Source of the DNA: Eledone cirrhosa
Taxonomy: Eukaryota
Assembly: GCA_964016885.1 (NCBI GenBank)
Contig: OZ024766.1
Coordinates: 19,778,001 to 19,842,000 of the forward strand
DNA: 64,000 nt
Direction of reading: 5' to 3'
Under the pieces are notes generated by a model. The model did not search any database. It saw only the letters and a program-made list of their open reading frames with translations, and was not told the origin of the DNA. This document shows positions 32,358 through 44,892 of the stretch, in pieces (the first letter of the stretch is position 1; every line of letters begins with the position of its first letter). The translations under genes were made by a program, and so were the position numbers.

Positions 32358-32419
32358 TATTCTATTATATATATTTCAAGGGTACCAAAAACTTTGGTAC
32401 GCCCTCATCAGATAAAATA
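32358..32419 (-). ncRNA. Hammerhead ribozyme, AT-rich family
   Basis: UAUUUUAU-CUGAUGA-GGG-C-GUACCAAA..UUUGGUAC-C-CUU-GAA-AUAUAUAU-A-AUAGAAUA. Confidence 0.75.
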
Positions 32420-32527
32420 CAAAGTGTGTTTTATAAATTTTGACATAGCCAAGGAAACATGCCCTTGAAATATATATAACAGAATACGATATTAAATAAA
32501 TGGAAACTATATTTATAAAACCATATT

Positions 32528-32592
32528 TATTTCACTATACATATTTCAGGGATACGAAATTAAAATATGGTATGCCTTCATCAGATAAAATA
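32528..32592 (-). ncRNA. Hammerhead ribozyme, AT-rich family (tandem partner of 32358)
   Basis: UAUUUUAU-CUGAUGA-AGG-C-AUAC..GUAU-C-CCU-GAA-AUAUGUAU-A-GUGAAAUA. Confidence 0.65.
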
Positions 32593-32968
32593 CAATATAT
32601 AAACAGTTTTATAAATAATTTTGACGTACCCTATTAGATGCGACCATTATTTTTGGAAGCTGTCTGGATAGTAAAAAATTGTAGAGTGCTTTATATCAGT
32701 TATAAAATATTTACTTGTTGTATCCCAACAATTTTAAATAGAACTTTTGCATATAATAGAATAAATACGGTTTTATAAATATAGTTTCCATTTATTTAAT
32801 ATCATTGAATATATTTATATATATATGTGTATATATGGGAGGCGACCAGTCAAAAAAGGTGCACGTTACTGGCTTATAGACATACTAATTTTACTACAGG
32901 ACTAGAACTGTTTCATTCGTAAGAAATCATCAAGAAAGTGTTGTACTCTTTTAACCATCTTTTGATCT

Positions 32969-33013
<45 letters not shown>

Positions 33014-33202
33014 GATAAATCTACCAAGAGTTTACGGTAGTGTCCAATCCGTATGAAGAACTCAATGTATTCCGGATATCATGGAAAGAAGAGATGTAAT
33101 GAAAATCCACTTTCGGTGAAAGATAAACGGTATACAGAGTCAAGATAAAATATTAAACAAATAATGAATAAACAATTCCTTATATTAAACAAAAAAAGTT
33201 CA

Positions 33203-33345
33203 TTATTTAACGATCGTTTCTAGGGTATATATGTGTTATAATTGGTATGCATATTCAACAGATCTATGTACAAAATTATACAAAATTATACAAATTATCA
33301 AGATTAAATATACATACCTAACACATATATACGCCGTCTTCAGAA

Positions 33346-33349
<4 letters not shown>
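33203..33349 (-). ncRNA. Hammerhead ribozyme with ~115-nt extended stem II
   Basis: UUAUUU-CUGAAGA-CGG-C-GUAUAUAUGUGUUA...UAACACAUAUAUAC-C-CUA-GAA-ACGAUCGU-U-AAAUAA. Confidence 0.65.
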
Positions 33350-33388
<39 letters not shown>

Positions 33389-33553
33389 AACGAGTCGAAC
33401 CCCTAAATGCCATTTAGTCCAGAATTAGCCGTCGAAACGGCTTGAGCTCAGCCGTCGGGGTCCTACTCGTTCCTATTACCCACTCTACTACCCTAAGTAT
33501 TGAGTACTTTGGTGCGTTATGGTCCACCTGGTTCCTTACCACATTTCCTCCGT

Positions 33554-33584
<31 letters not shown>

Positions 33585-33808
33585 CTTCTCTTTAAGCGAT
33601 CGACTTTCGTCAAATCGGACCGAGGAAACAATGTTTCCGCTGGTCTTTCCAATTGCTAATACTATCTATCGGTCGCAACTCCAGGTAGAAGAAGCAACGT
33701 GAAATAAAGTGTCTTGCTCAAGGACATAACGCATCGCCTGGTCCAGGAATCGAACTCACAACTTCACGATTGCGAATCCAATTCTCTAACCACTCAGCCA
33801 CACGCCTT

Positions 33809-33852
<44 letters not shown>

Positions 33853-35068
33853 TATACATAGGTTGTCTTTGCCGTTCATCGTTACGGGGTCGATAAAATA
33901 AAGTACCAGTAATGTACTGGTGTTATTTGCTGGCCTTGTGCCTAAAGTAGAAACAATTATATATATGTATATATATAAATATGTGGAAAATGGACGTTAA
34001 ACGAAGATGATGATGATATGTATATATATGTATATATATGTGTATATATGTATGTATGTATATATGTCAGGTCACCAGTTGGTGCTACTGGTAACATGTA
34101 TCCCAGTACAACCTGTCTCGTGGTCGGGTCGTTGGCGACTAAACTGGCAACCCCACCAAGGTTTCTTGGTGAGGAGGGTGACTTTGGACATCCTGCAGGA
34201 CTAAAAACAAAACCTGTCAAAAGGCAAAGGAGCTCTTAAGAGTCAATGGCCATCCAAAATCACCAGGAGAGATGACCCCTTAGCCTTTGTCAAGGCAGAA
34301 TTCTAGGAGAAGGAAAACTCTGATATAACACCTGCAACCCTGATGGTATCCAATGATGTTGACTTGTTCTTCTTTTTGGTAAATATCATCTTGGTTAAGA
34401 GAGTGGGACTGGCTTTGTGCAGTGCCTTTGCTCACTATAAAAGCTTCACGGCACAGGCATTGCTTTATATCTGGAGATCTCTCTGCACTTGTCATCACAT
34501 GGTACCATGGGCCCTGCACTATGTGTCAATAATGGTCACAAGTGTAGTCTTTGTACCAGAGTCTTCAAGTCGCTGGCTGGACTAAAAAGTCACACTCGTT
34601 CAGCGCATCGGTAGGGGTTCTCCTACATGGATATAAAGTAGTGGCCGTACTCGAAAACGAGTTGGCAGCCACCATGTATATATGTAGATATGCTTATGTG
34701 TGTGCGTGTATATGTATATGTATATTATTATTGTTGTTGTCGTTATTATTGTTATTAATGTATGTGTGTGTGAGAGTATGTGTGTGTGTGTATATGTATG
34801 TATATGTATATATTTTTATTTTTTTATTTTCCTTTTATTTATTTATTATTATTTTTTTTTTCTTTCTCCTTGTGCAATGGCCATACTCGATAACGAGGGG
34901 ACAGCCATCATGTATATATATATATATATATGTGTATATATGTATGTATATATATATATGTGTGTATATATGTATGTATATATATATGTGTATATATGTA
35001 TGTATGTATATATATATATATATGTGTGTGTATATATGTATGTATATATATATATGTGTGTATATATG

Positions 35069-35111
<43 letters not shown>

Positions 35112-35122
35112 ATATATGTATG

Positions 35123-35159
<37 letters not shown>

Positions 35160-35224
35160 ATATATATGTATGTATGTATATATATATATATGTGTGTATA
35201 TATGTATATATATATATATATGTG

Positions 35225-35257
<33 letters not shown>

Positions 35258-35464
35258 GTGTGTATATATATGTATGTATATATATATATGTGTATATATG
35301 TGTGTATATATATGTATGTATATATATATATGTATATATGTATGTATGTATATATATATATATATATATATGTGTATATATGTATGGATGTATATATATA
35401 TATATATATATGTGTATATATATACGTATGTATGTATATATATATATGTGTGTGTGTATATACG

Positions 35465-35529
<65 letters not shown>

Positions 35530-35552
35530 GTGTGTGTATATACGTATGTATG

Positions 35553-42657: not shown

Positions 42658-42692
<35 letters not shown>

Positions 42693-42778
42693 GTATATGT
42701 ATATATATATATTTGTGTATATGTATATATATGTGTACATGTATGTGTGTATATGTATATATATATATATATATACGC

Positions 42779-42830
<52 letters not shown>

Positions 42831-42907
42831 CGATTTACTATTTACACTGTCCGTCTCCAACTGAACGCCAAAAACATTAGTATAGACTATAGATCTGATG
42901 TATATAT

Positions 42908-42949
<42 letters not shown>

Positions 42950-43110
42950 CTTCCCTCCCTAATCCTTTCTCACTCCATCTCGGATTTTCCCTTCTCTCCC
43001 GCTTTTCGCACTTTTCCGAGGAACGACGCGAGAGCGAAACGTCGAAATCTCCCCAACTTAGACCAAACGTGAACCTACAGTTGCCTCCTGTGTTTTCTTT
43101 GTTCCTTTTC

Positions 43111-43151
<41 letters not shown>

Positions 43152-43280
43152 GAGTTTTATTGTAGCACAATAAAACAATGCAAATATCGGATAAGTAGCA
43201 CTCAACAGTTTATAGGATTGGAGTATAAATATAAGATCAAAGGATGGTTAAAAGAGTTCCAAGTATTTTATATACATATA

Positions 43281-43342
<62 letters not shown>

Positions 43343-43384
43343 TTTGGCTTGTATTGGCCGATAGTGCTTCTTATAGCTTTAATT

Positions 43385-43422
43385 GCCCTGATGAGTCCTT
43401 AATAGGACGAAACATTGTTGGC
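43385..43422 (+). ncRNA. Minimal hammerhead ribozyme with intact core
   Basis: GCC-CUGAUGA-GUCCU(UAAU)AGGAC-GAA-ACAUUGU-U-GGC. Confidence 0.82.
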
Positions 43423-43534
43423 TAATAAAGACTTTTGATGTATTGAAGGCTTCTTTGGTTTATTTTCATAATATATATATATATATATATAATTATTCAG
43501 AATAATAATAAATGAAGACGTTCACATAATCAAA

Positions 43535-43607
43535 ATATGTTTTATTATATATATTTCGGAGGTACTTGTGCTGTTTTTTCAGTACGTCCTCGTCAGATAA
43601 AATATAT
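43535..43607 (-). ncRNA. Hammerhead ribozyme, AT-rich family
   Basis: 11-bp stem I (1 mismatch), CUGACGA, GGA-C-GUACU..AGUAC-C-UCC, GAA-AUAUAUAU-A. Confidence 0.78.
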
Positions 43608-43794
43608 GGATTGATGTATGACACACCTTAACTTTCTTGATGGTTCAATTCCTGGCCTTGTCAATAATTGCTGGCCTTGTGCCAAAAGCTTTCTTTGCCT
43701 ACTCTACATTAACACGTACTTGCATATTCTCTTTCTAAATAAATAAATGAATACACACGTGCCCTTTTTCAATTCCCTTCTTTTTCTCATTCTA

Positions 43795-43829
43795 TCTACT
43801 GATGAAGGACTAATTTCCGAAACGTAAAG
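43795..43829 (+). ncRNA. Minimal hammerhead motif with weak stem I
   Basis: CUGAUGA-A-GGA(CUAAUU)UCC-GAA-ACGU-A; first stem I pair is mismatched. Confidence 0.55.
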
Positions 43830-44129
43830 GCTTTTTTCTCACTATACCCAGCGTTAAACTAAACTAATATATTTCTTCATTGTATTTTGTTTACGATTAC
43901 TTTTTGCGCGCGTGCATATTATTATATATGTGTGTGTGTGTATATATATAATGTGTGTATGTATGTATGTATGTATGTATGTATGTATGTATGTATGTAT
44001 GTATAATAATAATTATAAACGAAAGATATATACTTTATATCATCTCTGTTTATTTTATTATATATATTTCGAAGATGCAAAGCTTTTTGTATAACATAAA
44101 CCAAAAATGTCCTCCTCAAACAAAATACA

Positions 44130-44459
44130 TATCATCATCATACGTCCGCTTTTCCCTGCTTGCAAGGGTGGGACAAGGACTGATTCTGGCTAGATTTCTA
44201 CAGCTGGATGCCCTTTCTAACCCCAACCTCATTTACAGTGAGTGTTGGGTGCTTTTTAGCCGTGGCACCTCCACGACCACTTTACAGTGGAACGATAGGG
44301 ACCCCAGTCCCTCTCATCTCATTTCTACAGCTGAGTAAACTGGAGCAATATGAAATAAAGTGTCTTGCTCAAGGAAACAACACATCACCCGGTCTGAGAA
44401 TTGAACTCACAACCTTTCGATTGCAAGCTCAATGCTCTAACCACTAAGCCATGCGCCTT
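44130..44459 (-). mobile_element. Same SINE family, essentially unamplified (single 49-bp unit)
   Basis: Colinear reverse complement of 51284-52011. Confidence 0.88.
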
Positions 44460-44498
44460 CTCTCCTTGGTTATGTCAAAATTTATAAAACACACTTCG

Positions 44499-44560
44499 TA
44501 TTTTATCTGATGATAGCGTACCAAAATTTTTGGTACCTTTGAAATATATATAATAGGATA
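44499..44560 (+). ncRNA. Hammerhead motif, AT-rich family, weakened stem II base
   Basis: UAUUUUAU-CUGAUGA-UAG-C-GUACCAAAA..UUUUGGUAC-C-UUU-GAA-AUAUAUAU-A-AUAGGAUA; flanks are homologous to 32315-32455. Confidence 0.62.
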
Positions 44561-44821
44561 AATATAGTTTCCATTTACTTAATATCATTGTGTGTGTATA
44601 TATAACGAAGGAAATGTGGTAAGGAACCAGGTAGACCATAACGCACCAAAGTACTCAATACTTAGGGTAGTAGAGTGGATAATATATATATATATATATG
44701 TGTGCGTGTGTGTCTGCGTATATATAACCATAAAAACTCTTTTACACATCCAAATGTATATATTTATATATATGTAGGAGGTGAGTTTTATTGTAGTCCA
44801 ATAAAGCAATGCATGTCTCCC

Positions 44822-44892
44822 TATTTTATCTGACGAAAACGCAAATGTTATTGCATGATGATATTTGTTTTTGAAATGCGCATAATAAAATA
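44822..44892 (+). ncRNA. Hammerhead ribozyme, AT-rich family
   Basis: Perfect 8-bp stem I, CUGACGA, long stem II, GAA-AUGCGCAU-A (palindromic stem III). Confidence 0.75.

Follow-up and report, generated by a model that had tools for sequence, protein, structure and literature searches.

Mismatched type I hammerhead motifs in the terminal repeats of Hydra-clade Penelope-like elements of Eledone cirrhosa, and the probable origin of their short copies

Hammerhead motifs of the window and their structure

A stretch of 64 kb of the Eledone cirrhosa genome (contig OZ024766.1, positions 19,778,001 to 19,842,000; hereafter the window, with positions counted from its first letter) had been predicted from its letters alone to contain six hammerhead ribozyme motifs, a decayed seventh and a half copy. 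All of these were recovered at the positions given for them, with the stem II base triplets, the stem III octamers and the C·C mismatch (once C·U) that had been described. By their linkage to coding sequences the motifs are hammerheads in the pseudo-long terminal repeats (pLTRs) of five Hydra-clade Penelope-like element (PLE) families, designated A, B, C, D and Y, and we consider it quite probable that the short copies carrying them are reverse transcripts of the capped, uncut 5' end of the element RNA. The copies in the window, with the core position C3 and the site after which cleavage is predicted, are:

11113 to 11200, minus strand: half copy with a family C-like leader, the 5' strand of stem I and CUGAUGA, ended by (TA)n (family assigned by eye)
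32245 to 32455, minus strand: family A copy with leader, hammerhead (32359-32418; C3 at 32411, cleavage after 32366) and tail to the long 3' end, the inverted arm of a PLE insertion; 92-94% to family A references
32462 to 32486, plus strand: first piece of the family A forward arm (3' side of stem II and stem III), interrupted by a nested family B insertion
32487 to 32672, minus strand: family B copy from the candidate start site (ACTATCC) through the hammerhead (32529-32591; C3 at 32584, cleavage after 32536) to the short 3' end; 87% to the family B reference
32673 to 32753, plus strand: family B tail extension, inverted relative to the adjacent family B copy; 94%
32751 to 32806, plus strand: second piece of the family A forward arm, tail to the short 3' end; 97%
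33008 to 33350, minus strand: family Y copy between two (TA)n arrays, starting 7 nt before the core, with hammerhead (33202-33350; C3 at 33343, cleavage after 33209), a 116-nt stem II region and a tail reaching the long 3' end; matches the pLTR of intact 6.6-kb units at 98.6%
43487 to 43651, minus strand: family C copy with hammerhead (43539-43603; C3 at 43596, cleavage after 43546) and a tail ending in (TA)n; 85% to the family C reference over 43542-43651
44052 to 44126, minus strand: decayed family C-like hammerhead, C3 changed to U (core UUGAGGA at 44119, cleavage site 44059), C·C kept
44463 to 44588, plus strand: family A copy with hammerhead (44500-44559; C3 at 44507, cleavage after 44552), U·U at 10.1/11.1 and a short 3' end running into (TG)(TA)n
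44759 to 44813, minus strand: family D tail extension, inverted arm; 96-98%
44812 to 44927, plus strand: family D copy with hammerhead (44823-44891; C3 at 44830, cleavage after 44884), C·U at position 4 and stem III AUGCGCAU; 92% to the pLTR of locus L092, which has an intact 800-aa open reading frame (ORF)

The half copy proper (11113-11130, minus strand) comprises CUGAUGA and the upstream leader only. Positions 32245-32806 hold an inverted family A element with a family B element inside its AT-rich stem III, and a reading of the motifs at 32358 and 32528 as a tandem pair was rejected because the family B copy (32487-32753) is nested in the family A element; the target duplication of this insertion matches at 12 of 13 positions (32474-32486 and 32751-32763). 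The bare core pattern occurred 12 times in the window against 1.0 expected, and patterns allowing a spacer of up to 50-60 nt skip the copy at 33203 with its 116-nt stem II region. An Rfam scan gave no match at gathering thresholds, and no remnant of a Hydra ORF was found in the window.

The motifs have the type I hammerhead core (CUGANGA, GAA, A15.1-U16.1 and H17) with three helices, and both the layout and the covariation proposed for them in the original prediction were borne out. In 20 copies picked across sequence families, with Y excluded for its length, 13 pairs were formed in 93% of cells with 66 two-sided changes, a level reached by none of 500 shuffles in a test whose significance is overstated by kinship among the families; slid controls reached 32-52%. 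The catalytic core remained invariant while the stems covaried. Position 4 of stem II was paired in none of the 20 copies, and among 16 representatives including Y it was C·C in 14 and C·U in two, in the midst of positions 2, 3 and 5-9 that were 88-94% paired with three to five pair types each; position 1 was loose (U·U, G·U, A-U, G-C or C·A). The stem II region ranged from 26 to 116 nt across families. On this comparative evidence, a cytosine opposite a pyrimidine (C·Y) at position 4 is a structural constraint that deeply split families have retained. C·Y hammerheads are missed by Rfam and by descriptors with a short stem II; counts obtained with such tools in genomes of this kind are therefore far too low. 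Stem III had a probability of at most 0.01 in 15 of 16 monomer folds and of 0.24 in the remaining one, that of Y; its octamers are self-complementary, and both features fit cleavage as a dimer.

Coding elements and genomic abundance

The association of the motifs with Penelope-like pLTRs and with (TA)n, suggested in the original prediction, held, but the single non-autonomous retroelement family that it proposed resolved into five families, each linked to an ORF for reverse transcriptase (RT) and GIY-YIG endonuclease. Each of them ends a protein-coding Hydra-clade element, and the comparison that had been drawn with retrozymes is not needed. When the sequence upstream of family A was followed, it yielded RT and GIY-YIG fragments that end about 1.1 kb short of the hammerhead, while inverted pairs of families B and D, kilobases apart, flank the same kind of ORF (intact and 800 aa long in L092, family D). 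For family C the ORF lies upstream of the hammerhead in L102 and downstream of the 5' copy in L103. Family Y is by its sequence very young: 40 of 40 scored matches were identical to the window copy, and three hammerhead-ORF-hammerhead units of 6.6 kb (6.56-6.61 kb; L275-277) with intact 813-aa ORFs are 99.7-99.8% identical. The 3' untranslated regions measure 1.1-3.6 kb across families. Outside the window, family G is likewise linked to an RT and GIY-YIG ORF, and no ORF was linked to the motifs of family E and of the four rarer types F, H, I and J.

Membership of the Hydra clade is assigned by motifs, with published Hydra sequences compared by eye only. The predicted protein P0001 (800 aa) contains RLRWT at 35, DKT at 123, YRDD, CNCRIKNKC at 659, CNLC at 759 and CLH at 787, with no other CxxC, and P0020 contains RVRWR and DKT. 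The combination of CxCx5C, CxxC and CxH without CCHH was the same in families A, B and Y as in P0001, and in all linked ORFs the GIY-YIG endonuclease, called from motifs, is C-terminal. PF26215 is carried by 13 of 18 homologs, and the predicted structure of P0001 (predicted local distance difference test, pLDDT, 80) had telomerase RT as its best match; a PDB sequence search gave no match. The RT regions of the C·Y families are 45-61% alike, with 72-76% between A and B. In an RT tree of rows from this genome and unnamed homologs, restricted to loci with at least 150 aligned residues, a 95/97 split set the C·Y families apart from the remaining 19 rows, with the root unsure. An ordinary short Hydra-type hammerhead (U·U, 4-bp stem II) lies upstream of a Hydra ORF start at L060:2146-2190, so that both hammerhead types occur in this genome.

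The strict pattern TCTGANGA-N22-45-GAAATRYRYATH matched 91,552 times in the 3.0-Gb genome (about 31 per Mb) and 99 times as a reversed control, and the count is a lower bound because the pattern leaves out family Y, an exact 20-mer of which occurs 3,153 times. Although this first strict pattern did not require C·Y at position 4, 86,054 of its 91,552 matches (94%) had it (C·C 61,989; C·U 24,065; other 5,498). Motifs with a long stem II and an AC...GT stem III numbered 602 against 525 in the control, and the 100 listed were varied, with no fixed C·C by eye. In metagenomes, 113 loci with 114 matches were obtained, of which six passed a loose pairing filter, none convincing and none with a Hydra ORF nearby; viral contigs and phages searched for the motif gave no match.

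Several further observations concern these and related elements. Family Y was also found in sequencing-run contigs of two organisms (X1 and X4 from organism A, X5 from organism B), compared over L275:480-1300; no alternative letter is listed at either mismatch C, and two neighbouring changes still pair as G·U. At L327:4619-4729 two hammerheads of another C·C family follow each other as direct repeats at a distance of 54 nt, which may be a naturally occurring dimer or the result of local duplication. As candidate motif partners, the best 30 loci of a Pfam GIY-YIG search (10,597 candidates) were discarded, most belonging to another PLE group that is Neptune-like by eye; this second large group has a CxxxxCxxC linker and some open frames of 800-1,100 aa. 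Pieces of a Helitron-like Rep/helicase ORF lie between two family A copies at L081:2698-7419.

Within the window, three short hammerheads of another type (43388-43412 and 43799-43822, plus strand; 6579-6602, minus strand) have G10.1-C11.1, a short stem II and GAAAC followed by a short palindrome; the second and third resemble one family, and all three probably belong to other PLE families. A degenerate short hammerhead at 32870-32935 (minus strand; core UUGAUGA, stem III ACAGUUCU) has intact relatives in L020 and L026. Remnants of the family D tail, with no hammerhead, lie at 43128-43271 (minus strand) and 32945-32976 (plus strand), and tandem repeats occupy 38146-39707 (units of about 173 bp) and about 11400-12900 (units yielding recurring 111-aa frames every 112 bp).

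Ends of the copies and the proposed mode of copying

Within (TA)n, copies occur alone or in inverted pairs, one member of the pair having the long 3' end and the other the short; together with pLTRs in tandem or inverted copies and an optional tail, this is the insertion layout of the Hydra clade. Each family has two fixed 3' ends, a short one about 50-62 nt and a long one about 135-200 nt after the cleavage site. In all seven families examined (A, B, C, D, E, G and Y) ACTC directly follows the short 3' end, with GAGT(G/T)CT 16-77 nt further on (e.g. L275:738-822). The tails of Hydra-2_Amil and Hydra-2_Ajap, from a coral and a sea cucumber, contain GCTC...GAGCACT by eye (PMC8557442), a difference that would amount to a compensatory change; the ACUC...GAGU(G/U)CU stem is likely a protein-binding and priming stem and a candidate clade-wide RNA element for RT binding. 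The possibility that an AUAUAUA 3' end created by cleavage primes on (TA)n was set aside since copies end at least 50 nt past the site and Y has ACGAUCGU there. A DNA search for family D returned nothing, very common words being skipped by that search.

At the other end, short copies share one 5' limit per family. Measured from the core, 37 of 38 family A copies end within 84 nt (13 of them at 79-81), and the preferred limits were 69-70 nt in family D (10 of 25 copies), 2-7 nt in family Y (6 of 14) and 64-66 nt in family C (5 of 37). Despite widely differing leader and stem II lengths, this limit is the A of a YTC/A site located 116-142 nt before the cleavage site. The site resembles an RNA polymerase II initiator. 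At the junctions with (TA)n an extra G often replaces the C of the element. Counts of this G cover families A, C, D and Y; they supersede a first counting pattern (14 of 17) that was replaced because its phase excluded direct junctions. Family A had G at 9 of 26 junctions (direct 14, T 2, A 1) and at 0 of 13 for a control site 13 nt downstream (Fisher p=0.015), and family C had it at 12 of 50 (direct 28, C 8, T 1, A 1). In family D, where the count covers inserted bases only and leaves direct junctions aside, the 99 inserted bases other than A were 91 G, 4 C and 4 T; this share of G compares with a background of 27% (103/388) and with 0 of 3 at the control site. An extra G of this kind has been ascribed to copying of the m7G cap for L1 and SVA (PMC3287187). 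Since the short copies contain the whole hammerhead and often a cap-like G, their templates were likely capped and uncut.

The sequence of events that we propose begins at the YTC/A site of the pLTR, which would serve as the start for RNA polymerase II. The RT-endonuclease protein would bind the tail stem, nick (TA)n and prime at one of two internal sites, so that priming at the 5' pLTR and a run to the cap would give the many copies of 200-340 nt, and priming at the 3' pLTR the longer, ORF-bearing ones. The hammerhead is probably gated and would cut only as a dimer or with the help of protein, since monomers are predicted to lack the palindromic stem III; the ribozyme probably lies off the main copying path, where it might remove the capped leader or resolve tandem transcripts. 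Such a scheme agrees with the behaviour of a lizard PLE in vitro, for which internal priming at two sites, uncut RNA as the main substrate and a protein requirement of the hammerhead are reported (PMC11167929). The scheme leaves long tandem pLTRs unexplained, since their template must extend beyond the start in the upstream direction. Its weakest step, which we hold only tentatively, is that C·Y at position 4 of stem II would be a selected hinge or protein contact at the place where loop 2 lies in short Hydra hammerheads. A bolder and rather unlikely extension would make these motifs a separate hammerhead subtype, in which the fixed C·Y hinge of the lengthened stem II is a protein contact gating cleavage, a protein-triggered switch cuts off the capped leader about 115-140 nt from the cap, and uncut RNA is the template. 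If this were true, more than 90,000 copies would record promoter start, two priming sites and the uncut state in vivo.

A number of observations weigh against the preferred reading of the motifs and short copies. The Pfam search found no family in P0001 or P0020. Positions 10.1 and 11.1 were paired in 15 of 20 copies, with the canonical G-C in only four, and family Y has C·A there, so that some families may cleave poorly or not at all; the 10.3-11.3 pair had a probability below 0.3 in 8 of 16 folds, other registers competing commonly at the base of stem II. To the kinship that inflates the shuffle test is added a choice of loci for end mapping that were best matches or first listed, with both arms of inverted pairs counted and near-duplicates (L024 and L025) among them. 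The stop at 116-124 nt seen in 12 of the 37 family C alignments is likely due to an indel of the reference, not to an end. Family Y has a weak G excess: among the first 100 of its 209 junctions, 7 have G, 81 are direct and the rest have A (7), T (3) or C (2). By eye, of roughly 41 Y junctions lying close to the cleavage site, about 10 coincide with it; cutting of some templates could be the cause, but AT microhomology accounts for this equally well.

Three other origins of the copies were weighed. The start-to-tail units might be self-propagating, SINE-like (short interspersed nuclear element) non-autonomous elements with an internal promoter of their own that borrow the Hydra protein. Short units are indeed common and have fixed ends on both sides, transcription of short copies would account for the cap signature equally well, and non-autonomous PLE derivatives have been described in Chlamys (PMC8557442). 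We nevertheless think this improbable, given that short copies are close to the pLTRs of coding elements (98.6% in Y, 92% in D), that longer copies are plentiful (the 400 bp preceding family A gave 1,958 candidates), and that the Drosophila pLTR promoter needs sequence upstream of the start (PMC2377424), which the short copies do not have. According to the retrozyme model, proposed for PLEs (PMC4209133), hammerheads cut tandem transcripts into monomers that are ligated into circles and serve as templates. Copies crossing the cleavage site are what a ligated circle allows, and tandem units with pLTRs longer than start-to-tail, which need template upstream of the start, do exist. A circle, however, lacks both 5' end and cap, so the fixed limit at which the short copies stop, with its untemplated G, argues against ligated circles as their template. 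Nor were the non-coding head-to-tail repeats of 150-400 nt typical of non-LTR retrozymes seen: copies are ORF-linked, dispersed or inverted, and the sole apparent tandem in the window is the nested insertion. For the short copies we regard this model as very improbable; it may still hold for long tandem insertions. That the repeats are inverted DNA-transposon ends (miniature inverted-repeat transposable elements) with an incidental likeness to hammerheads is hardly credible: many insertions are hairpin-shaped with inverted arms, but these are of unequal length and each stops at a 3' end of the element, as in the published PLE layout (PMC8557442), the core is invariant while the stems covary, and the linked RT ORFs refute it.

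With reverse transcription of capped, uncut RNA as the preferred origin of the short copies, the genome itself shows a likely RNA start, the start of reverse transcription and a likely capped and uncut template, a picture in line with the sole in vitro study. The role of the hammerhead in PLEs has been called a mystery in reviews (PMC7761336, PMC8557442). Biochemical work could readily use family Y, whose ORFs are intact and whose near-identical copies number in the thousands; if our reading holds, this young and intact family makes the question of hammerhead function in PLEs directly testable.

Comparison with known systems

Earlier publications cover Hydra hammerheads, the targeting of (TA)n and one Octopus family. 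The Hydra-clade PLEs of Craig et al. 2021 (PMC8557442) share with the present families the C-terminal GIY-YIG endonuclease without CCHH, the RW and DKT motifs, CxCx5C and CxxC/CxH, as well as (TA)n targets, an inverted 5' copy, an optional tail and a type I hammerhead close to the 3' end whose stem III is quasi-palindromic and which often has U·U at 10.1/11.1. In contrast, the Hydra rows of File S2 of that work have a short stem II and no internal stem II C·C, in line with the original suggestion that this feature had not been described, whereas stem II regions of 26-116 nt with a fixed C·Y were found here; the hammerhead of Hydra-1_Obim from Octopus bimaculoides also differs from the C·Y type. 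Tails are about 85-140 nt long here compared with 30-40 nt in published Hydra elements, and the 6.6 kb of family Y exceeds the length of less than 3 kb given as usual, not as a rule, for the clade (PMC8557442). The main text of a repeat annotation of Octopus vulgaris, which lists 31 recently active Penelope-like families, is without the words 'Hydra' and 'ribozyme'. In searches mostly without subscription papers, among which Lünse et al. 2017 could include a C·Y form, we found in print neither the C·Y mismatch with a 26-116-nt stem II across families, nor such a copy number, nor a genomic cap signature for PLE copies.

The minimal PLE hammerheads of Cervera and de la Peña 2014 (PMC4209133) likewise lie in pLTRs, have a palindromic stem III and a weak monomer fold, and occur as thousands of dispersed single motifs and as opposite-strand pairs 100-700 bp apart. 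They differ in a conserved G10.1-C11.1 with an extra base before it, both absent here; the 4,000 and 9,000 motifs called remarkable in that study compare with at least 91,552 in Eledone cirrhosa, and the helix II of Drosophila virilis Penelope has a one-sided bulge, not C·C. Metazoan non-LTR retrozymes (Cervera and de la Peña 2020, PMC7229834) also have type I hammerheads in very many copies, 126,247 of them in axolotl, but are described as non-coding tandem repeats with circular RNAs and no promoter, whereas the copies reported here form the ends of coding elements and their own 5' end is fixed and capped-like. Naiad PLEs (HHR_half_core) have the endonuclease N-terminal to RT, and it was C-terminal in all ORFs linked to the present motifs. 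The system closest in its copying is the Poseidon element PAc of Anolis (Frangieh et al. 2024, PMC11167929), which likewise has AT-rich targets, a tail delimited by two internal priming sites and copies of uncut RNA (likely uncut in the present families). That element belongs to another clade, and its hammerhead overlaps the start codon, whereas in family Y it is located about 350 nt upstream; the evidence for PAc was obtained in vitro, and in Eledone cirrhosa it is drawn from the genome.

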